The notes under the pieces are model-generated. The model was given only the letters and a program-made list of their open reading frames with translations. It searched no databases and was not told the origin of the DNA. Made by a program: the position numbers and the translations under genes. From Rhizobium sp. Q54 (GTDB taxonomy: Bacteria > Pseudomonadota > Alphaproteobacteria > UBA7879 > VGCX01), in contig CAMBTM010000001.1 in NCBI GenBank assembly GCA_945870825.1, positions 26,926-90,925 of the forward strand: DNA of 64,000 bases, in the 5' to 3' direction. Below are positions 12,775-50,388 of this stretch, one piece after another (the stretch's first letter is position 1; every line of letters starts with the position of its first letter).

Positions 12775-12817
12775 CACTCAACACTAAATTACATTTAGTG
12801 TAACTTAGTGTTGAGTG
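12775..12817. repeat. Nested inverted repeats (CACTCAACACTAA...TTAGTGTTGAGTG with inner CACTAAA-TTACA-TTTAGTG) in the nusA / orphan-protein divergent region
   Basis: Read directly from the sequence. Confidence 0.55.
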
Positions 12818-12913
12818 GTACAAGTATCACGCTCTGCGTCATCCATATGGGTAAGCCAAAAAATCACATTCACTGCAGTTGAAAATATAAATAAAAATCC
12901 CTACATTGCATTT

Positions 12914-15736
12914 ATGCGCTATTTACTGACATTTATTATATTTATATTTTCCATCCATAGCCACGCTATGGAGGATTTAGCTGCATTGGTGCAGGCACGG
13001 TTTCAAGGCCGTGTGCCCAATCACCTTTTACCCTCTCGCTTTGCAGGATATGAACGTATCGCAACAAACATAAGGCTTTTAGGGGGTCGAAGCGTCCTTG
13101 AACCTTCGAGTAAAGGGATGATACCCTATCCTATGCCGCAGCCAGCGATTATGTTATCAGATCCTGTCTTTGGAACACCCCTTGTCCCCAGAAATGCAGC
13201 CGATGCTTTGCTTTTCTTCCTATTCCCTTATCCCAATATTTTTCAAGCGACCACCCTTGGGTCTGATCCAATCTCTAGGTTAGAACCAAAAACCTTGGGC
13301 CAACTGGCAAGACTTTGTGAGGAATATGAAGGGAGTCTTGCTGCCACCTACTCAGATACCCAAGTAATGGCTTTGGAAGAAGACTTCACAAAAGCGTTAT
13401 TAAAGGCCTTAAACTTTGATGCCAAAAAGTATGAACGTCTAGAGCCTAAACTAGATGCCTTTAATCGATGGATAACGGTCCAAGCTTTTGCAAGGAAATT
13501 AGATACAATGGCTGAAACAGTATCAGATGATGAGAGAGCAGTTGCAGCCCTCGAACACCCTGATTTAACATTGCCTCAGTGCGGTTTGCGGAACATGTTC
13601 AGAGGTTCACAAGAATTTTGGGGCATTTCTGGTATTGAACTTGAAACCTTAAGGCATCCATCCAATGAACACTCAGAGGTTCTCCAGTCTTTTGCAGAAA
13701 ACGTTTTGAATGAAGCATCCGTTAGTTTTTCCACCTTTGAAAATAGGGTGAAGGATTTTGGGAAAATGAGGCTCATTAATCTTATGGTCCGTGGCGTGGT
13801 GGATCAGCATTATGAGGCAGATATGAATGGTCTTAATCTTCAATCGCGCTTGGCCCTCTTCTTTTGGAAGAAGTACCAATGGGCTTTGCAAGAAGGAAAT
13901 ACAACCCCCATGATGGCGTTTTATGCGCACAGACTTGGCATTGATCCAATAGAAGGGCCTATGAACATCGTCCTATTACCCTTGCCCTTCTTGACCTTCG
14001 ACGATATAAAAAGGGATCCAAGACAATTTTTCTTACTTTCTTTGCCTGAGCAGGAAAAAATTATCAAAGAGTGTGCCGGCGCTTTCATCCCTATCAACAT
14101 GCACGAAGGGAAAGTTGAGGACAAAAAATTTTCTGATTGTATGGAAACAGCCATTTTTAACCTTGCAACAGCAATGATCCATAGGGTTGAAGCGGGGAAA
14201 GTTATCCTAGACCCAAGCTTTTTGCCTGACTGCCCTTTGAAAACCTATTTAGTAAAAAACCCTGGGGATTTCCATGAGTATGCGACCAAGCATTCTGAAT
14301 GGGCCAACGCTGTTGCAGGTATTCCAAGCGTTAAGTATCTTAAAACAACCACTGATGGGAAAGGATGTGAAGTCCGTCCTGGTCTTATTTCAACCCTTAA
14401 TGCTTTGTCTTTTCTTTTTGGCATGAAAGACCCTCTTCCCTATAAAAAAGATGCCTCCATTATGGAACGGTTGGCGCAAATTTCCACATTTATCCAATCA
14501 ACAGGTTATGCTGTGACACTTGTACTGGATGAAAAAAATAAACTTGAATGGTCTCCTTTAAAAAATGACTTTTCAGGACTATTCTCTTTAAAAAAGGATA
14601 CAGATACCGGGGTATTTGATACCTCCTTTGGACATGGTTATCTTAAATGGGTAACTGGCAATAGCAGTCGTGTCATCTCTCTCTTTGATCACGCCAAAAC
14701 TCTTGATGCCCTATTAACCACAGCCCCGCTTGTTAACAATCGAGATGCCTTTGATGCCTACATGAAAAAGTTCAGGATTCTTAGCGGCAGAGTTCATCAT
14801 TTAGAAGCCCATCTTTTTCAAATGGACTTAACGAGCCTTGAAATGCAAAAGGCTGTTTTCTTAGAAACCTACAATCAAAAATCTCTTGAAAGCCTAGCTC
14901 TTTCCATTATTCAACGGTTGGATGGAACTAACACTTGGCCCGCGGCTTGCGACTTTAACTTTCTGGACGGCGGCAATGGCACGCCATCAGATGAATTCCT
15001 TCATGCATTTGCTACAATACATCCAATGACTTTTTCTATCTGGAATATATTCCGGTCATATAGAACACCTGATGCTTCCATGTCTTTTTGGCATTGGTGT
15101 CGAGATACCCACAAAGAATGGATGATAGAAGCAGCGCTCCCCCTTCTCAAAGATTTTGGCACACAATGTGTGCCAAATAACGCTCAGGATCCTAGCCTTC
15201 TGTTACCCTATTTAACAAGGATGCCATCTCTTGAAACAGCACAGTTTTATGGGTGGGATGGGCCTTATTGTCTTAGGATGGAAGATACAAATCCTTTCCA
15301 TACGCCTGTCTTTGATTTTTTAACAACTAAAAATTTCATAAAAGATATTAGGGGTATTAGCCTGTCTCCAAAAACTGCTTTTCATATGATGGCACAATCT
15401 GCGAAACTCAGTCGACTCAGATTCGTCCCCCTCAATGAGACTGGATGGACAGAAGAAATTTTGAGAAAATTTATTGATCGATTTTTGACACGTAATACCT
15501 ACGGAGAGAGTAAATATCTAGAAGTGTCTTTTTTCTGGGAAGAATCAAAAATTCTAGATTTCATGAGATCTTTAAACCCGCAATACTTAAAAGATAACCT
15601 CTTTTATGCTAATAGCATGCCAGCTCCTTTAGGTGAATACGATCCAGAGACAACTGTGTATGCAAGAATCCTCAAAGAAATTCAAGACAGAGAATCCACT
15701 GCTGCTACCTCGGCCGAAGGAAAAACAGAAGACTAA
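12914..15736 (+). CDS. Large (~940 aa) secreted protein of unknown function
   Basis: Long ORF with a signal-peptide-like start MRYLLTFIIFIFSIHSHA at internal Met 12914. The upstream 33 codons of the ORF overlap the palindromic intergenic region and are probably non-coding. No motif I can assign. Confidence 0.55.
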   Translation: MRYLLTFIIFIFSIHSHAMEDLAALVQARFQGRVPNHLLPSRFAGYERIATNIRLLGGRSVLEPSSKGMIPYPMPQPAIMLSDPVFGTPLVPRNAADALLFFLFPYPNIFQATTLGSDPISRLEPKTLGQLARLCEEYEGSLAATYSDTQVMALEEDFTKALLKALNFDAKKYERLEPKLDAFNRWITVQAFARKLDTMAETVSDDERAVAALEHPDLTLPQCGLRNMFRGSQEFWGISGIELETLRHPSNEHSEVLQSFAENVLNEASVSFSTFENRVKDFGKMRLINLMVRGVVDQHYEADMNGLNLQSRLALFFWKKYQWALQEGNTTPMMAFYAHRLGIDPIEGPMNIVLLPLPFLTFDDIKRDPRQFFLLSLPEQEKIIKECAGAFIPINMHEGKVEDKKFSDCMETAIFNLATAMIHRVEAGKVILDPSFLPDCPLKTYLVKNPGDFHEYATKHSEWANAVAGIPSVKYLKTTTDGKGCEVRPGLISTLNALSFLFGMKDPLPYKKDASIMERLAQISTFIQSTGYAVTLVLDEKNKLEWSPLKNDFSGLFSLKKDTDTGVFDTSFGHGYLKWVTGNSSRVISLFDHAKTLDALLTTAPLVNNRDAFDAYMKKFRILSGRVHHLEAHLFQMDLTSLEMQKAVFLETYNQKSLESLALSIIQRLDGTNTWPAACDFNFLDGGNGTPSDEFLHAFATIHPMTFSIWNIFRSYRTPDASMSFWHWCRDTHKEWMIEAALPLLKDFGTQCVPNNAQDPSLLLPYLTRMPSLETAQFYGWDGPYCLRMEDTNPFHTPVFDFLTTKNFIKDIRGISLSPKTAFHMMAQSAKLSRLRFVPLNETGWTEEILRKFIDRFLTRNTYGESKYLEVSFFWEESKILDFMRSLNPQYLKDNLFYANSMPAPLGEYDPETTVYARILKEIQDRESTAATSAEGKTED

Positions 15737-15845: not shown

Positions 15846-15866
15846 AAACCCCCTATGAACCTGTCC

Positions 15867-15970
15867 AAATTTGCAATCAAAATGCAAATTTGTCCGGCTT
15901 TTTCTGTTTTTTCTTGCAATATGGCATCGCTAATGCCATATTGAGACTCAAAGTGGCATTTCAGGTGCCA
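15867..15970 (+). promoter_or_regulatory. Palindrome-rich promoter region of the DUF4143 ATPase gene: AAATTTGCA-N7-TGCAAATTT plus two TGGCA-N7-TGCCA sites (centres 15930 and 15962, 32 bp apart)
   Basis: Three separate perfect palindromes lie within 105 bp, ending about 30 bp before the ATG at 15999. The first TGGCA site extends to the 11-bp arms CAATATGGCAT / ATGCCATATTG. Confidence 0.5.
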
Positions 15971-15998: not shown

Positions 15999-17177
15999 AT
16001 GCACTTTATTCCAAGGTTTTTTAAGGATCCAGGCCAAAGTTTCTTTCTTTTTGGCCCCCGTGGCACAGGAAAATCAACCCTCATCAAGGCTCTCTATAAA
16101 GACGCCATTTGGATTGATTTATTAAAACCTGATGTGCTCCGTAGTTACCTTGCGTACCCAGAACGTTTGGGAAATCTTATTGAAGGTCAACCAAGTATAA
16201 AAACCATCGTCATCGATGAAATCCAAAAAGCCCCGCAATTATTAACGATGATCCATCATCTTATTGAAAAGAAAATAGGACTCAAGTTCATCCTCACAGG
16301 ATCCAGTGCCAGAAAGATTAAACGGATGGATGCTGATCTTTTGGGAGGGCGCGCTATTAAACGAGAGCTTTATCCTTTTATGGCAGCAGAACTTGGCGAT
16401 CAGTTTGACCTGAAGAGAGCTCTAAACAGGGGCCTCCTCCCCTTGTTAACAGCCTCACCTAATCCTGAAGATACGCTTACAACTTATAGTGCCCTTTACA
16501 TCCACGAAGAAGTTCAAACGGAAGGATTTATAAGAAATCTAGGGGATTTTTCAAGATTTTTAGAGGCTATTTCTTTCTCTCATGGCGCCATATTAAACAC
16601 GGCGAACATTGCAAGAGAGTGTGAAATCAAAAGAAAAACCGTTGAAAATTATTTAAACGTTCTTGAAGATCTTTTATTATGTTTTAAGGTGCCAGTATTC
16701 TCGAAACGGGCCACACGTATGCTGAGTGTTCATCCAAAGTTTTATCTTTTTGATGCAGGTCTTTATCAAGGGCTAAGGCCCCGGGGTATACTCGATAAGC
16801 CTGAGGAAATCGAAGGTGCTGCACTCGAAGGACTTGTTGCGCAGCATTTAAGAGCCTGGGTACAGTATACAAGTCAAAAACATAGTCTCAATTTCTGGCG
16901 AACACGATCAGGATCAGAAGTTGACTTCGTTGTATATGGAACCCTGGGATTTTGGGGAATAGAAGTTAAAAATACGACAAAAATCCGTCCCGAAGACTTA
17001 AAATCGTTGGAATCTTTTTTGGAAGAATATCCAGAGGCTACAGGATTCCTTCTCTATCGTGGGTCAGAACTTTTTAAAAGAAATAATATCTTATGTGTTC
17101 CTGTCGATATGTTCTTAAGAAATCTTGTTCCTGACATAGGACTCTGGGAACATATCCCTACCCCTCTTAAACCATAA
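15999..17177 (+). CDS. AAA+ ATPase, AAA_14 + DUF4143 family (COG1373-like)
   Basis: Walker A GPRGTGKST and Walker B IVIDEIQ are present. The C-terminal region is typical of the DUF4143 family. A diverged paralog lies at 25864. Confidence 0.8.
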   Translation: MHFIPRFFKDPGQSFFLFGPRGTGKSTLIKALYKDAIWIDLLKPDVLRSYLAYPERLGNLIEGQPSIKTIVIDEIQKAPQLLTMIHHLIEKKIGLKFILTGSSARKIKRMDADLLGGRAIKRELYPFMAAELGDQFDLKRALNRGLLPLLTASPNPEDTLTTYSALYIHEEVQTEGFIRNLGDFSRFLEAISFSHGAILNTANIARECEIKRKTVENYLNVLEDLLLCFKVPVFSKRATRMLSVHPKFYLFDAGLYQGLRPRGILDKPEEIEGAALEGLVAQHLRAWVQYTSQKHSLNFWRTRSGSEVDFVVYGTLGFWGIEVKNTTKIRPEDLKSLESFLEEYPEATGFLLYRGSELFKRNNILCVPVDMFLRNLVPDIGLWEHIPTPLKP

Positions 17178-22976: not shown

Positions 22977-23432
22977 TTATCGGGATGCCGTGCGCTTAGG
23001 TGCTGAATAACGACCGATGTTACCAAAGAGTTCAGACACAAGACTTGGATCACGCCCCTTAACAGGCGTTGCCCCAGATTTCACCTCAACGTCATAATGA
23101 TGGGAAAGGTCCCTAATTTCGTAACCACTCACTGTACCATCTGGTCCAAAACTAACGGCTAAAATTTCACGTTCCAAAACCTTTGGATCAAAGAAAGCCT
23201 TTTTCTCCGTCTTGTCGCCAATATAATACCAAACGTCCCCACCAAAGAGTTCTTTGCTAGAAGGAGGCCCCAATAATTCTTGAAGTTCTGGTTTCTTTGT
23301 TTTGTTTAACTCAATTTTCTTTAGTTCATCCATGTCAAAAAAATTGCCACGCACATACTGCGTTGGTGTACAAGAAACCAGAGACAATCCCAATAAACCC
23401 AAAACAAAAGACCAATAATATTTGTATGTCAT
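22977..23432 (-). CDS. bamE: Outer-membrane protein assembly factor BamE (SmpA/OmlA lipoprotein)
   Basis: Lipobox LSLVSC after a signal peptide. About 150 aa, SmpA_OmlA-like. Confidence 0.7.
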   Translation of the reverse strand: MTYKYYWSFVLGLLGLSLVSCTPTQYVRGNFFDMDELKKIELNKTKKPELQELLGPPSSKELFGGDVWYYIGDKTEKKAFFDPKVLEREILAVSFGPDGTVSGYEIRDLSHHYDVEVKSGATPVKGRDPSLVSELFGNIGRYSAPKRTASR

Positions 23433-23572
23433 TTAAAACCCATGATGCTGATGAAGCATGGCATAAATTCCCATAACCCCCACCCCCTGTCAATGCTTGT
23501 TTTTTCTTGCTCCATATAAAATAATTATTTAATATAAAATAAAATATAAAATAATTAACAGGGATTAAAAAG

Positions 23573-24337
23573 ATGAAAAATGAAAGAATACACCGATCAT
23601 ATGCTTTGTTTGTTGTGCTCATTTGCTTCCTCGGCATCTTTTTTTGGACAATGCAGGATTCCAACGCTGCACAAACGTCCATAGAACGGCCCCGCAGAGA
23701 GATCCCCCTCAACAAAGCGCTCTCAAAATTGCTGCCTGCCCCAAAAACTGTTGTGGAACAAGAAAATATTGGCAATAAATATCGCATTGCAATGACCGAT
23801 GTGGAATTCGTTAAAAAAAGAGATATTATCACAAAACTATTTACAACATACCCCAATCTTGTGGCGGTCCTGGATGTTGGGGGAAAATTTGTATCAAAGA
23901 AAGGTGTGTTGACCTTAACAAAGAAAGAGTTCAACCCTGCCATACATCACCTAATCATTACCAACCATAAAAACAACGTCAAAAGAATTGGGGCTTTTTT
24001 CTTGGCAGAATGTCGTAGCCTGCTTTCCCTAACCCTTTATCCCCTCATCAACCTGACCAGCATCAATGGATATTTTCTTGCTGAATGTACAAAACTGAAG
24101 ACGTTGAATCTTGGATGCCTCCACAGCGTTGAGTCCATTGGACACAGTTTCCTTGCCAACTGTCGTGCACTGATGCATCTGGATCTAAAACCCCTCCAAA
24201 ATGTGAGGAAAATCGGTCAATTATTTCTCTCTGGTTGTGGGCACCTTAAAGATGTTGATTTCACGCAATTGCACAAAGTAAAACGTGTGACACACCCTAA
24301 ACCCAACACCTCTGGGTTTGAGGTCATTAAAGATTAG
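23573..24337 (+). CDS. Leucine-rich-repeat (BspA-type LRR) membrane-anchored protein
   Basis: N-terminal TM/signal anchor followed by at least four ~23-aa repeats: IGAFFLAECRSLLSLTL, INGYFLAECTKLKTLNL, IGHSFLANCRALMHLDL, IGQLFLSGCGHLKDVDF. It is preceded by an AT-rich ATAAAATA repeat promoter. Confidence 0.6.
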   Translation: MKNERIHRSYALFVVLICFLGIFFWTMQDSNAAQTSIERPRREIPLNKALSKLLPAPKTVVEQENIGNKYRIAMTDVEFVKKRDIITKLFTTYPNLVAVLDVGGKFVSKKGVLTLTKKEFNPAIHHLIITNHKNNVKRIGAFFLAECRSLLSLTLYPLINLTSINGYFLAECTKLKTLNLGCLHSVESIGHSFLANCRALMHLDLKPLQNVRKIGQLFLSGCGHLKDVDFTQLHKVKRVTHPKPNTSGFEVIKD

Positions 24338-24402
24338 GTAAAATACACATCTTGCACTCCCTTCCCCCATGGACTATGCTACTTTAAAAACATGGTCCTA
24401 TA

Positions 24403-25791
24403 ATGTTCGTACTCTTATTGATTATATTCGGGTTATCCACCCTTTCCCTTTGTGCAGAGGGTCATTTAGACGGATCCACCCTCAGTCTATGGTGGGGAGC
24501 GCCCTTTTCGCTGATTCTTTTATCTCTGGCTGTAGGCCCTACACTCTTGGGACGTTTTTGGCATCGACATTATAGTAATATTATCCTAGGGTTTACCCTT
24601 GCGTTTCTACTGCCAGCATGCCAGTTTTTTGGCTTCCAGACTATTATTCATGAGGTCAGACATTACCTGTTTTTGGAATATATCCCCTTCGTTACATTAA
24701 TTGGGGCACTGTTTATTGTCACTGGCGGTATTCGTCTTAATGCCCAATGGGAAGGAACACCTAAAAGCAACTGTATGGTTTTAGGTCTTGGCACCCTTGC
24801 TGCAAGTTTCATTGGCACCACGGGGGCGAGCATGCTGTTGATTCGACCCCTCATTCGCGGTAATGCTTGGAGATCCCATAAAGCCCACATCATCATCTTC
24901 TTTATCTTTCTCGTTGCCAATATTGGTGGCGCCCTGACCCCCCTTGGAGACCCCCCTCTTTTCTTAGGTTTTCTTGAAGGGGTTCCCTTTTTCTGGCCCA
25001 TGACCCATATGGTGGGCCCCTTAGCCGTTACAGCTGGCACAGCCCTTGGCATATTTTATTTCCTTGACCAGTATTTTTATAAAAAGGAAAAAGGGCCGAT
25101 ACACTCTGCAGATAAAAAAGTTCATGCCCTTTCAATCTCTGGAGGTCTCAATCTATTTTTTCTTCTCTGTATTATGGGTGCAGTCCTTCTCAGCGGCCTT
25201 TGGAAGCCAGGGATAACCCTGGGGATTTTAAAACTCGAAAATATAACCCGTGATGGGATTTTGTTGTTAATTACCCTACTTTCTTTAAAATTTACGCCCC
25301 AGTCTATACGACAAAAAAATCAGTTTTCCCTTGATCCACTAAAAGAAGTTGCACGTGTTTTTCTAGGCATTTTTATTACGGTTATCCCTGTCTTAAGCAT
25401 TCTAAAAGCAGGCACAGAAGGGGCCCTCGCGCCTTTTATTGCCCTTGCTAACCATGATGGAGTCCCATGCAACCCAGCCTACTTTTGCCTGACAGGTTTC
25501 TTTTCCAGTGTCCTTGATAATGCCCCGACTTATTTTGTCTTTTTCAATATGGCAGGAGGAGATGTGACAGCTCTCACTACAACCCTATCCCAAACATTGC
25601 TTGCTATCTCAACGGGGGCTGTCTTTATGGGGGCCCTGACCTATATCGGCAATGCCCCTAACTTTATGGTCAAAGCTGTCGCTGAAACCCATCACATTAA
25701 AATGCCTACTTTCTTGGGCTATATGGGCTGGTCTTTGGTTGTCCTCACGCCTATTTTTCTTCTCGTGACCTGGATTTTTTTCATCTCATAG
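24403..25791 (+). CDS. Ion-transporter-superfamily permease (ArsB/NhaD/CitMHS-like)
   Basis: 462 aa, about 12 TM, with the GDPPLFLGF motif. Family assignment is approximate. Confidence 0.5.
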   Translation: MFVLLLIIFGLSTLSLCAEGHLDGSTLSLWWGAPFSLILLSLAVGPTLLGRFWHRHYSNIILGFTLAFLLPACQFFGFQTIIHEVRHYLFLEYIPFVTLIGALFIVTGGIRLNAQWEGTPKSNCMVLGLGTLAASFIGTTGASMLLIRPLIRGNAWRSHKAHIIIFFIFLVANIGGALTPLGDPPLFLGFLEGVPFFWPMTHMVGPLAVTAGTALGIFYFLDQYFYKKEKGPIHSADKKVHALSISGGLNLFFLLCIMGAVLLSGLWKPGITLGILKLENITRDGILLLITLLSLKFTPQSIRQKNQFSLDPLKEVARVFLGIFITVIPVLSILKAGTEGALAPFIALANHDGVPCNPAYFCLTGFFSSVLDNAPTYFVFFNMAGGDVTALTTTLSQTLLAISTGAVFMGALTYIGNAPNFMVKAVAETHHIKMPTFLGYMGWSLVVLTPIFLLVTWIFFIS

Positions 25792-25863: not shown

Positions 25864-27033
25864 TTGTGGAATATAAAAATGCATTTTAAGCGATATTTGA
25901 CCTTTCATTTGCCTGACCAACAATCTGCTTTTCTTTGGGGAGCAAGGAAAACTGGGAAATCAACCTTCCTAAAAGAGAAATTCCCAACAGCAGTTTACAT
26001 AGACCTTTTAAGGGCTGATGTTTATCAAGGATATCTTCGAAAACCAGAAAAACTGAGGGAAGAATTTCGTGGATTCACAGACCCCCTAACCATCATTATT
26101 GACGAAGTCCAAAAAGTTCCCATCCTTCTGGACGAAATTCATGGTCTCATCGAAGACAGAAAAAATCTTCAGTTTATTCTATGCGGATCAAGTGCTAGAA
26201 GATTAAGACAACCAGGCGTGAATTTATTGGGTGGCAGAGCCTGGAGGTTCATGTTTTTGCCACTTTGCTATCCCGAAATTCAAGAACTCAATTGGTCTCA
26301 TATTTTTAACAGAGGTCTTATCCCAAGCCACTACGTGTCACCATCTTGGGAAAAAAATCTTGCAGCTTATCTTTATGACTACGTCTTAACAGAAGTTCAT
26401 TTAGAGGCAGATATCCGGAAAAAAGAGTCTTTTGCCAGATTTCTAGATGTTCTTGGATTTTGTCATGGAACGCTTATCAATTACACCAATATCGCCCGAG
26501 ACTGTGGGGTCAACAGCAAAACAGTCATGACCTATTTTGAGATTCTGGAAGATATGTATTTAGGTTATTTTCTAAGGCCATTTCGATCAAGAAGCAGTCG
26601 TCAAATTGTTCAAAAAACACCCAAATTCTACCTCTTTGACACAGGCGTTGCCAATTATCTTAAGCGATATGAATTCAAAGAAATGAGAGGGGCTGACGCT
26701 GGCGCAAGTTTTGAACATTACGTATTTTTGGAATTGATGGCATACAAACTGCTGACAGATAAGCGGGATAACATTTTTTTCTGGAGAACAAAAGAAAAGC
26801 ATGAGGTAGACTTCATTGTTCAAGATATGGCTTTTGAAGTCAAAATTTCAACACCTATCGAAAAAAATGACATAAAAAACCTTCTCATTTTTGCCCAAGA
26901 TCATGCAATGTCTCTTCACATCATCTCTCTGGAACATCGAAAAAGAGTCATGCGAGAAGGAACCAAAGAAGTAACCGTATGGCCAATTCAAGACTTCCTA
27001 GAGGCCCTTTGGGGGGGAGATCTATGGAAATAA
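25864..27033 (+). CDS. AAA+ ATPase, AAA_14 + DUF4143 family (paralog of 15999..17177)
   Basis: Walker A GARKTGKST and Walker B IIIDEVQ. About 35-40% identical to the first copy by eye. The start is possibly the Met at 25879. Confidence 0.8.
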   Translation: MWNIKMHFKRYLTFHLPDQQSAFLWGARKTGKSTFLKEKFPTAVYIDLLRADVYQGYLRKPEKLREEFRGFTDPLTIIIDEVQKVPILLDEIHGLIEDRKNLQFILCGSSARRLRQPGVNLLGGRAWRFMFLPLCYPEIQELNWSHIFNRGLIPSHYVSPSWEKNLAAYLYDYVLTEVHLEADIRKKESFARFLDVLGFCHGTLINYTNIARDCGVNSKTVMTYFEILEDMYLGYFLRPFRSRSSRQIVQKTPKFYLFDTGVANYLKRYEFKEMRGADAGASFEHYVFLELMAYKLLTDKRDNIFFWRTKEKHEVDFIVQDMAFEVKISTPIEKNDIKNLLIFAQDHAMSLHIISLEHRKRVMREGTKEVTVWPIQDFLEALWGGDLWK

Positions 27034-27111: not shown

Positions 27112-27552
27112 TTAGGCAACAGCAACTTTCTTAATACGGCGGCTTGTTCCAAGACCGATGGTCTTTGCCAAACGGCTCCGTTGCTTTGCATAGTTTGGTG
27201 CAACCGTTGGGTAATCTGCTGGAAGGCCCCAACGTTCACGATATTCTTGAATGCTCATGCCATAAACAGCTTTCAGATGGCGCTTTAACATTTTAAGTCT
27301 TTTTCCATCTTCAAGACAGATAATATAGTCTGGTGTGACGGATTTTTTGATCGCAACGGCAGGTGTTGGACGCCCTGGTCGGCCTCTTCCCTGGTCGTGA
27401 ACTGCAGCAAGAGCTGCATAGACTTGTTCGATGATCCCTGGCAAATCAGAAATCTGAACATCGTTATTACTAACATGTGCTGAAACAATATCTGCTGTTA
27501 AAGTAAGTACTTGATCCACTGTATTTAAGTTTTCGTTCATCTTACGCTCCAT
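27112..27552 (-). CDS. mucR: Ros/MucR-family zinc-finger transcriptional regulator
   Basis: Signature VTPDYIICLEDGKRLKMLKRHL...YGMSIQEYRERWGLP. Confidence 0.9.
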   Translation of the reverse strand: MERKMNENLNTVDQVLTLTADIVSAHVSNNDVQISDLPGIIEQVYAALAAVHDQGRGRPGRPTPAVAIKKSVTPDYIICLEDGKRLKMLKRHLKAVYGMSIQEYRERWGLPADYPTVAPNYAKQRSRLAKTIGLGTSRRIKKVAVA

Positions 27553-27653
27553 TATTTTTAGATTTTCTTGATATATAGCTTATAAGTTTAAAACGCAAGA
27601 AAAAGTTTAAAATTTAGATAATTCAATGCTAAAAAATAACTTTTACATTAAGC

Positions 27654-39857: not shown

Positions 39858-40145
39858 CTATATCCCCCTATCAAGGGCATTTTCATAAACTTTGCTTTTA
39901 TCCCTTTTGCCAACGGCAATCACTTCAATTGTTAAACACTGATCTTCCACTTTATAAACAAGCCTATAAGGCGGTCTCATAATTTTAATTTTATAACAGT
40001 TGGGCATCCCCCTCAATTTATTTTTAGGGTTATGGGGATTGAGCAATATTTCCTGAATCTTTTTTTGAAATATCTCTTTCAAAGAAGGTGTTAAATTATT
40101 CCATTCCCTTTGAGCTGATTTTTTAAATCTTAGTGAGTAAATCAT
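39858..40145 (-). CDS. relE: RelE/ParE-family type II toxin
   Basis: 95 aa. Overlaps the upstream antitoxin gene. RelE-like C-terminus YRLVYKVEDQ. Confidence 0.75.
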   Translation of the reverse strand: MIYSLRFKKSAQREWNNLTPSLKEIFQKKIQEILLNPHNPKNKLRGMPNCYKIKIMRPPYRLVYKVEDQCLTIEVIAVGKRDKSKVYENALDRGI

Positions 40146-40380
40146 TTATATCAACAGGTATGGTTTCTTCGTTTTCTCTTTCTGTAACAATGGCTGCTAA
40201 TTGGAGGTCCTCTATCATTTCCATTAAATATTCAAATAATTTGAAAGGTACGCAATAAAAGACAGGTTCATTTCTATTCAAAATAGCAATCGGATTACCC
40301 TCAGCGTTATTAACAACTTCCATGGGGTTTTTCTTCAACTCCGTTATGCTTGCAACTGTATCAGCGTATAGGGTATGCAT
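40123..40380 (-). CDS. Phd/YefM-family antitoxin
   Basis: About 85 aa starting MHTLYADTVASITELKKNP. AGGAGA ribosome-binding site 9 nt upstream of the ATG at 40380. Overlaps relE. Confidence 0.7.
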   Translation of the reverse strand: MHTLYADTVASITELKKNPMEVVNNAEGNPIAILNRNEPVFYCVPFKLFEYLMEMIEDLQLAAIVTERENEETIPVDINDLLTKI

Positions 40381-40590
40381 GATTATTTCTCCTAATAAAC
40401 TATTAATAGCACCTTTAAAAGACCTATTCAAGAGTTTTTAACCACCCCACCAACCGGACATTTCTAAATTGCGTTGATCGTCATACAATTTTCTTGACAA
40501 CAATATCCCAAAAATAGTCCTATACCTTCAGATCGTAATTAATCTAAAAAAATCACTTAGTTTGGTACTTTGACCTCTTAACGAAACGCC

Positions 40591-41208
40591 ATGGAACCGA
40601 ACATGATACTCGAAAACAAGTTAAACATCACCAATCAGGTAGAACTGGCCAAAGCAGAAGAAAAAATCAGCAAGCGAAAAGCCAAGCAGCTTTTTGACTC
40701 CGGTGATATTGCCAAAGTGGAAGTCTGCACCTTCGCCGGACTTGCTTTCATCCACGCCTATTTGTTTGAAGATATTTATGACTTTGCAGGCAAAATCCGA
40801 GAGGTTAACATCGCCAAGGGAAAATTCCGTTTTGCGCCACTGATGTATCTTCAAGCCTCTCTGGAACATATCGACACTATGCTGCAAGGCAGCGTTGATC
40901 AGATTATCGAAAAATATGTGGAGATGAATATTGCCCACCCCTTTCGTGAGGGCAACGGACGCGCTACCCGCATCTGGCTAGACATGATCTTGAAAAAAGA
41001 GAAGAAGCAGGTGGTGGATTGGAATTTGGTCGATAAAGATGAGTACCTTTCCGCCATGGAGCGCAGCGTGGTGAAGGATGTGGAAATCAAAATCCTGCTG
41101 CAAAAAGCACTGACTGATCAAATTCATGACCGCGCCCTCTTTATGAAAGGCATTGATGTCAGTTATTACTACGAAGGATATAGCGAGTTCAAAACAGAAG
41201 AGCTTTAG
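40591..41208 (+). CDS. fic: Fic-domain protein (AMPylation/phosphocholination family), class III with C-terminal inhibitory motif
   Basis: Fic motif HPFREGNGRATR. C-terminal SYYYEG matches the [S/T]xxxE[G/N] autoinhibition motif. Composition is more GC-rich than the flanks. Confidence 0.85.
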   Translation: MEPNMILENKLNITNQVELAKAEEKISKRKAKQLFDSGDIAKVEVCTFAGLAFIHAYLFEDIYDFAGKIREVNIAKGKFRFAPLMYLQASLEHIDTMLQGSVDQIIEKYVEMNIAHPFREGNGRATRIWLDMILKKEKKQVVDWNLVDKDEYLSAMERSVVKDVEIKILLQKALTDQIHDRALFMKGIDVSYYYEGYSEFKTEEL

Positions 41209-49807: not shown

Positions 49808-50068
49808 ATGATGCAGGCAAAGATTATTAAAATTGGTAACTCAAAGGGACTCAGAATCCCAAAGGCAATCCTGGAGCAATGTAAAATGGAAAACATCGTT
49901 AATTTAACCGTAGAAGAAGGTAAACTTGTCATAACACCCTACAAAAACCCTAGAGAAGGATGGGAAGAGGCGGCACGTAAACTTGCTGCGAGTGGCGATG
50001 ATTCCCTTCTTGATGCAGAATATGTGGGATATCCCTTGGACAATGATGATGAATGGGAATGGAAATGA
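49808..50068 (+). CDS. mazE: MazE/PemI (AbrB/SpoVT-fold) antitoxin
   Basis: IIKIGNSKGLRIPKAIL swapped-hairpin motif and an acidic C-terminus. Confidence 0.75.
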   Translation: MMQAKIIKIGNSKGLRIPKAILEQCKMENIVNLTVEEGKLVITPYKNPREGWEEAARKLAASGDDSLLDAEYVGYPLDNDDEWEWK

Positions 50069-50388
50069 TAAGAACGTCTCGATTTGACGTTTTTCTTGTT
50101 TCTCTTGACCCGTCTCATGGACATGAAATACGTAAAACACGTCCCTGTGTTGTCCTATCCCCTAATGAATTAAATAACCACTTGAAAACTGTCATTATTG
50201 CTCCTATGACCAGTAAGGCTAGAGATTTTCCAACAAGAATTCAGACAACCTTCCAAGGAAAAAGGGGCAATATCATGCTTGAACAGATTCGCACCGTCGA
50301 TAAAACAAGACTCATGAAAAAGCTTGGAACATTAGATCCCACAACATCTTCTCTTTCTCTGATTGGTTTAAAAAGAATGTTCGAATGA
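50065..50388 (+). CDS. mazF: MazF/PemK-family endoribonuclease toxin
   Basis: MIRTSRFDVFLVSLDPSHGHEIRKTRPCVVLS signature. ATGA overlap with the mazE stop. Confidence 0.8.
   Translation: MIRTSRFDVFLVSLDPSHGHEIRKTRPCVVLSPNELNNHLKTVIIAPMTSKARDFPTRIQTTFQGKRGNIMLEQIRTVDKTRLMKKLGTLDPTTSSLSLIGLKRMFE

Follow-up and report, generated by a model that had tools for sequence, protein, structure and literature searches.

A small BspA/TpLRR-class leucine-rich-repeat protein with a 25-residue period, encoded on an 838-bp insertion between bamE and CitMHS_2

Gene content of the locus

The 64-kb stretch of DNA analysed here (hereafter the window) harbours a gene for a leucine-rich-repeat (LRR) protein located between bamE and a CitMHS_2 transporter gene (Table 1). 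The gene encodes a product of 254 aa (the coordinates include the stop codon), begins with ATG and has an AGGGA motif 8 nt upstream. With a GC content of 42.0% and a GC3 of 44.7%, its composition lies inside the distribution for the genes of the window (mean 44.4 +/- 3.6%), and it is a genuine, intact accessory gene. A long antisense ORF overlapping it was found to be without support, leaving the LRR gene as the sole convincing ORF of the region. The terminator scan revealed no terminator-like site between its stop codon and CitMHS_2. A second accessory gene in the variable region, encoding an AAA_14/DUF4143 ATPase, lies on the far side of CitMHS_2.

Table 1. Features of the LRR locus and its surroundings (positions within the window).
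Feature	Coordinates	Strand	Remarks
bamE, divergent neighbour	22977..23432	-	PF04355; miaB 12 bp downstream
Ancestral bamE promoter/5' region	23433..23507	-	42.7% GC; block AAAAACAAGCATTGACAGG...TATGGGAATTTA kept in all relatives (alignment A4)
Lineage-specific insertion, 838 bp	23508..24345	+	Leader + ORF + 8 bp, 39.5% GC; flank alignments A4, A5
Leader carried by the insertion, 65 bp	23508..23572	+	13.8% GC; Shine-Dalgarno (SD) sequence AGGGA at 23560-23564
LRR gene	23573..24337	+
N-terminal segment, residues 1-32	23573..23668	+	Basic n-region, hydrophobic core Y10-M27, SNA/A
Pre-LRR module, residues 75-124	23795..23944	+	Degenerate capping repeats; pattern F..yP..VAVLDvg....kGvLtL
LRR units, residues 125-236	23945..24280	+	Four 25-residue units (L..L.L.pL.nv..IG..FL..C..) and a terminal half unit
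Retained ancestral CitMHS_2 upstream region	24346..24402	+	Alignment A5
CitMHS_2 transporter gene	24403..25791	+	567.9 bits; ancestral divergent partner of bamE in relatives
AAA_14/DUF4143 ATPase gene	25864..27033	+	PADLOC candidate defence gene PDC-S01; absent from empty-site relatives
ros/mucR homologue	27112..27552	-	Pfam ROS_MUCR PF05443, 160 bits; 2.8 kb beyond the LRR stop

Most of the window is occupied by housekeeping genes, including those for class II RNR, IF-2, NusA, PDH, GatCAB, MipZ, peptidoglycan recycling and sugar-nucleotide enzymes. Among the species representatives retrieved, none has a MiaB of more than 58% identity. The nearest named matches of RecA come from MAGs of unclassified Alphaproteobacteria (88%), followed at ~80% by MAGs of Holosporaceae/Holosporales, Rickettsiales and Caulobacterales.

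Domain organization and predicted fold of the LRR protein

The N-terminus consists of nine basic-region residues (1-9), a hydrophobic segment (Y10-M27) and the sequence SNA/AQ, with hydropathy windows 5-30 above 1.6, and looks like a Sec signal peptide or else a signal-anchor that stays uncleaved. As the hydrophobic core is 17-18 residues long, a membrane anchor fits as well as a cleaved signal. Signal-like N-termini are also present in the related proteins P0162, P0009, P0015, P0017 and P0023, and in a paralogue from the related contig L083 (same architecture). Judging from these sequence features, the LRR protein is probably exported.

The pre-LRR module was delimited by fifteen homologues in which the match reaches back to residues 58-92, and is supported by alignment A1 (P0009, P0023, P0022 and others). 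It is 37% identical to the 509-aa L083 paralogue and, in the AF2 model, folds within the solenoid with a pLDDT of 79-90. The repeat region comprises four full units, followed by a half unit at the C-terminal end and preceded by two degenerate ones. The IG/INxxFL anchors of the full units occur at residues 139, 164, 189 and 214, all four in register with a spacing of exactly 25, so that the IGxxFLxxC-type motif pointed out in the initial annotation is real. The half unit VDFTQLHKVKRV follows the fourth repeat and is itself followed by a tail of ~15 residues, the fifth repeat stopping after LHKVKRV. The AF2 model, built on a 15-sequence alignment (the single-sequence version gave a pLDDT of 42.7), has an overall pLDDT of 79, with 79-96 for residues 70-240 and 89-96 for the LRR units, while the last 14 residues are unstructured.

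The protein belongs to the BspA/TpLRR class (LRR_5), of which it represents a 25-residue 'IGxxFLxxC' subtype. It matches the Pfam profile LRR_5 (BspA type leucine rich repeat) over residues 132-232 with an E-value of 1.4e-10, scoring 41.6 bits against a gathering threshold of 27.7. The best match in the sequence search of solved structures is likewise an LRR_5 protein (PDB 4fs7, E 3.3e-9), and the predicted solenoid is nearest to solved TpLRR/BspA-like structures. The BspA-type assignment of the initial annotation is thus borne out by profile, structure-sequence match and predicted fold alike. Searches of NCBIfam and PADLOC with the LRR protein returned nothing, and comparison of the model with a viral fold library yielded generic giant-virus and phage LRR matches only.

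Repeats of the TpLRR class are defined by a length of ~23 residues, which is not what was found here: since the 100 residues of the four units match 92 residues in 4fs7 and 93 positions of the Pfam profile, the period is 25, not 23. Each of the ~23-residue units described initially is therefore two residues longer than stated. The protein is a length variant inside LRR_5, and its period gives no reason for exclusion from the family.

Relatives of the LRR protein

A word-indexed protein search with the LRR ORF gave no match except itself, and no match was detected in the scanned contigs of GTDB representatives, among which the source genome is not included. Meanwhile, a HMMER search retrieved 24,585 proteins at E <= 1e-3, including 250 at E <= 1e-30; the LRR protein is an ordinary addition to a very large known family. 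The top matches are long proteins (median 760 aa), which are hit repeatedly by residues ~134-239. In the top 149 matches, the distance between successive FLxxC motifs equals 25 residues in 1030 of 1278 cases (81%), which identifies the 25-residue FLxxC set as a coherent LRR_5 branch. All close relatives also match Pfam LRR_5. A broad alignment of 47 sequences (A2) was too ragged and was left out of the results.

Among the ten top matches having any provenance, a Holosporales MAG accounts for one (CAO5680543.1) and transcriptome data of the diplonemid Flectonema for two. The profile search added proteins of 240-340 aa with ubiquitin-like N-termini, one of them with PF00240. These ubiquitin-like/LRR proteins are probably eukaryotic, because they are encoded on contigs of 0.2-2.7 Mb whose genes are sparse and unannotatable. 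By the provenance of its members, the 25-residue branch thus appears to be common to Holosporales-type bacteria and protists, and the Holosporales MAG, Flectonema and probably eukaryotic relatives make 'eukaryote-like' a fair term for the subtype. The eukaryote-like, symbiont-linked character suggested initially thus holds for the subfamily, whereas a part of this protein in host interaction is conjectural. The 64 kb contain neither a secretion system nor a hallmark gene of host association, nor any sign of an intracellular lifestyle.

The nearest architectural twin is P0162 (247 aa), which shares signal, cap and LRR at 33% identity. Other members of the 25-residue FLxxC subfamily (P0017, i.e. 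CAO5680543.1, P0023, P0009, P0065 and P0155-P0161) have the same period, motif and pre-LRR module, with 33-47% identity over the repeats, and its bacterial members begin with signal-like sequences. Most of them, however, are 400-5900 aa long and have many repeats or modules, some with subtilase or ubiquitin-like domains. In contrast, the protein described here, with a signal, a cap and four repeats, is a minimal member of a very large and little-described 25-residue BspA/TpLRR branch.

The solved LRR_5 comparators, TpLRR of Treponema pallidum (PDB 6mlx) and the JCSG structures 4fs7, 4h09, 4oju and 3sb4, share only ~20% identity with the LRR protein, which differs from them in having a period of 25 rather than 23, 'FL' in place of 'AF' and, in addition, a conserved module ahead of the LRR units. 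BspA of Tannerella forsythia and the BspA-like families of Trichomonas and Entamoeba belong to the same Pfam family (LRR_5, PF13306; PMC2843621). BspA-like proteins act in binding, either at the surface or after secretion, and their gene families are frequently variable and expanded (PMC2843621). Unlike the LRR protein, they are much larger and contain numerous repeats as well as additional domains or membrane tails. No second LRR gene or paralogue was found within the window, where the gene is present in one copy.

Two further groups of LRR proteins were considered and rejected as kin. The cysteine-containing (CC) F-box LRRs, represented by FBXL2 (6o60) and by the Ralstonia GALA proteins, which are described as 'eukaryote-like' effectors (PMC2244805), resemble the LRR protein in their conserved Cys and 24-26-residue period, but the match to 6o60 is at chance level (E 1.9) and there is no F-box. 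Faint LRR_FBXL15 matches occur in relatives of the LRR protein. The LGR proteins of Protochlamydia consist of 28-residue RI-like repeats (PMC2216083).

Insertion history of the bamE/CitMHS_2 gap

In contigs of relatives, whose flanking genes are 70-77% identical to those of the window at the nucleotide level, the locus was found in three states. In five contigs (L086, L097, L098 and two without DNA; two of the five came from the BamE scan) the site is empty, CitMHS_2 and bamE being divergent and separated by no more than ~156 bp. In the window, the 254-aa LRR gene lies in this gap and reads towards CitMHS_2. In the third state (L083, L084 and L085), the same gap is occupied by a 509-aa LRR_5 gene which reads towards bamE. 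Flank alignments against L086 and L097 showed that positions 23508-24345 have no counterpart in the empty sites; as the flanks are only ~70-77% identical, these boundaries carry an uncertainty of a few bp. The LRR gene is thus a lineage-specific accessory insertion, most likely a recently acquired one.

The 509-aa protein of L083 is 37% identical to the LRR protein over 172 residues and its gene shows no DNA similarity to the LRR gene, which makes it a distant paralogue. Its gene resides on an insertion of ~2.1 kb, together with a MITE-like inverted repeat and a 48-bp remnant of an AAA_14 gene start. This insertion lies on the other side of the GAAAAAACA box, copies of which occur at both of its ends, and is ~10 bp apart from the LRR insertion of the window and in the opposite orientation. 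The two insertions differ in position, in orientation and in content, and are most simply read as independent events. One inter-promoter gap with empty sites, an 838-bp insertion and an independent 2.1-kb insertion constitutes a natural experiment for exact boundaries. A direct repeat GCAAGA (6-8 bp) at the ends of the window insertion and TAAAATA near both ends were considered, but are too short to be told from chance.

A bolder reading would make this gap a recurrent LRR landing site in the clade and the 25-residue FLxxC subtype a set of genes exchanged between Holosporales-like bacteria and protist hosts, in which it occurs as fusions with ubiquitin-like domains. We regard it as speculative and rather improbable. 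If true, small exported LRR proteins would mimic host LRR adaptors of the ubiquitin pathway.

With its last repeat incomplete and the insertion boundary 8 bp past the stop codon, the LRR gene could be a piece of a longer gene, and the ORF a decaying, functionless remnant. The product is indeed short when set against the median of its top homologues, and its fifth repeat runs out into an unstructured C-terminus. On the other hand, the frame is intact, with a start codon, an SD sequence, a signal-like N-terminus, a capping module and four regular repeats; moreover, codon composition is normal, the AF2 model is confident, and relatives of comparable size exist (P0162 and the 242-aa P0154). Decay therefore seems very unlikely.

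Several minor features of the variable region deserve mention. At ~7905-8200 of L083, upstream of the 509-aa paralogue, there is a ~300-bp MITE-like element with inverted repeats TTAGAACCCTAAATCGGGATTAC ... GTAATCCCGAATTAGGGTTTAGAA and GC-rich internal palindromes. Two AAA_14/DUF4143 genes occur in the 64 kb (25864-27033 and 15999-17177), both matching the PADLOC candidate defence family PDC-S01 with E-values of 1e-50 to 5e-55, and both occupy spots where relatives have other genes, namely hipBA, or AbiEii plus a gene for a 186-aa protein. The 48-bp piece that corresponds to the start of the first gene (its 5' end) lies at L083:9854-9899, between the LRR paralogue and bamE (L083-L085). Its identity of 94%, compared with ~72% in the flanking core genes, suggests that the AAA_14 family moves between these genomes.

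The A/T-rich leader and the mucR homologue

The 140 bp upstream of the LRR gene had been noted as extremely AT-rich. Its overall GC content is 29.3%, and the description holds for the ORF-proximal 65 bp (23508-23572, 13.8%) but not for the other 75 bp (23433-23507), which are the conserved bamE promoter region and contain 42.7% GC. The leader includes an A/T-only run of 45 bp (23514-23558), the longest in the window, where the runner-up measures 20 bp; its 50-bp minimum of 6% GC is also the lowest of the window, the next being 14%. Four of the nine copies of ATAAAATA found in the 64 kb are clustered within 38 bp of the leader, so the reiterated units reported initially do exist. However, when sequences of pure A/T composition were shuffled, P was ~0.06 for four copies of the 8-mer and ~0.02 for the 14-nt exact repeat; given that composition, the reiteration is only marginally beyond chance.

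Several overlapping -10-like hexamers are present in the leader, where a canonical sigma-70 promoter was not found (best match 8/12, with a poor -35). A promoter function of the leader is nevertheless presumed, as it is the only new sequence able to drive the LRR gene. No CtrA-type TTAA-N7-TTAA box was found anywhere in the window. An inverted repeat, CCCTGTCAAT (23485-23494) and ATTAACAGGG (23554-23563), brackets the A/T run; its left arm is the -35 region of bamE (TTGACAGGG on the minus strand) and its right arm overlaps the ribosome-binding site of the LRR gene. The repeat could be due to chance, could be a regulator site or, if transcription starts upstream, could form an RNA hairpin masking the SD sequence.

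The presence of a ros/mucR gene 3 kb downstream had been taken to hint at regulation of the LRR gene. This argument fails, since all relatives examined have an unbroken recA-tsaB-rimI-mucR block, with or without an LRR gene, and many Alphaproteobacteria have tsaB-rimI-mucR-miaB as contiguous genes. The closeness of mucR is ancestral gene order and, as far as the LRR gene is concerned, a coincidence, uninformative on regulation; a false lead is thereby removed.

A case for silencing can be made from the DNA itself. As xenogeneic silencers, MucR homologues repress AT-rich accessory genes in other Alphaproteobacteria (PMC9410896, PMC8857273, PMC10746212), a suitable target being AT-rich, with T-A steps but no A-tracts (PMC5881533). 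Like these systems, the genome encodes a MucR and offers a candidate target, an insertion with a T-A-rich A/T tract: 12 T-A steps fall within 44 bp of the leader, a density reached nowhere else in the window. In contrast to MucR/Ros-silenced genes, the LRR gene body is not AT-rich, mucR is nearby by ancestral synteny only, and the tract also contains four A4 tracts, an arrangement reported to lower the affinity of MucR in EMSA (PMC5881533). Silencing of the LRR gene by MucR via the A/T tract is plausible from the sequence. It is, however, quite conceivable, if somewhat less than probable, that the tract is only a promoter or UP-like element or an insertion scar, with MucR having no specific role at the LRR gene. 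The features that set the locus apart from silenced genes speak for the latter, as does the 43% GC upstream of the L083 paralogue; the unmatched density of T-A steps and the silencing of AT-rich accessory DNA elsewhere speak against it, and so does the AT-rich, conserved upstream region of mucR itself, which fits an AT-reading MucR. Either way, the insertion offers a compact system in which to ask if an A/T-only leader, once acquired, is recognised by silencers of the MucR type.

Directly upstream of mucR (27553-27653) lies the second most AT-rich spot of the window (18.8% GC, 50-bp minimum 14%); the corresponding DNA is likewise AT-rich in relatives (L083:4045-4125; L086:367-430), which is consistent with autoregulation of MucR at AT-rich DNA. 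In the MucR proteins of the clade (window 27112-27552 on the minus strand, L083:4130-4609, L086:435-914, L097:481-909, L087, L089 and L093), the sequence reads CLEDGK(K/R)LKMLKRHLKAVY, the second zinc-ligand Cys being replaced by Asp. The window protein carries this clade variant as CLEDG...KRHLKAVY. The clade proteins also lack a second His at the position where Ros has one. Such sequences may represent a zinc-free or differently coordinated variant of MucR.

Proposed role of the LRR protein

The best explanation of the locus, in which we place moderate confidence, is a small exported LRR_5 binding protein encoded on an 838-bp insertion with its own A/T leader. The Sec-type signal or signal-anchor would place the repeat domain outside the cytoplasm, that is, in the periplasm or envelope or in released form, and the concave beta-sheet would most likely bind a protein partner. 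Considering where the closest relatives occur, this partner may be a protein of a eukaryotic host or prey. The gene arrived as a single insertion together with its 65-bp, almost pure A/T leader, which supplies the ribosome-binding site and probably the promoter. The insertion separated the promoter of CitMHS_2 from that of bamE, the two genes having been an ancestral divergent pair.

TpLRR is known as a processed, mainly periplasmic protein and not as a host-directed effector. The LRR protein might accordingly have a bacterial partner and serve protein-protein contacts in the envelope, no eukaryotic host being involved. TpLRR is the best structural match of the model and of similar size, the N-terminus is of the Sec type with no dedicated secretion signal visible, several neighbours are envelope genes (bamE, lnt and the transporter), and the window provides no evidence of an intracellular lifestyle. 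The gene is nonetheless dispensable, as five related contigs are without it at this site, and in another lineage the slot is filled by a very different paralogue. In addition, its product is closest in sequence to large proteins with multiple repeats that come from a Holosporales MAG and protist data. Dispensability, the paralogue in the slot and the nature of the relatives are more typical of a variable interaction factor than of a core envelope part, and the TpLRR-like role is considered unlikely, if by no means negligible, beside that of an exported binding protein on an accessory insertion.

Other features of the window

An ORF of 973 aa (12815-15736, plus strand) has no Pfam or PADLOC match, a GC3 of 37% and, internally, a signal-like start (MRYLLTFIIFIFSIHSHA). 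The ORF is part of the variable island that separates trmB from nusA, adjoins the second AAA_14 gene and possibly encodes a large protein that is secreted. The edge of the same island carries a palindromic intergenic element (15858-15958), conserved at L083:16569-16655; the copies are 81-90% identical and match in both orientations. Toxin-antitoxin-type genes are found at 39858-40431, 40591-41208 and 50053-50388, and code for ParE/Phd, a Fic/DOC protein and a MazF/PemK toxin. The ParE/Phd genes have 33% GC, clearly under the window mean, and relatives carry hipBA and AbiEii in the neighbourhoods where the toxin-antitoxin genes of the window are located.
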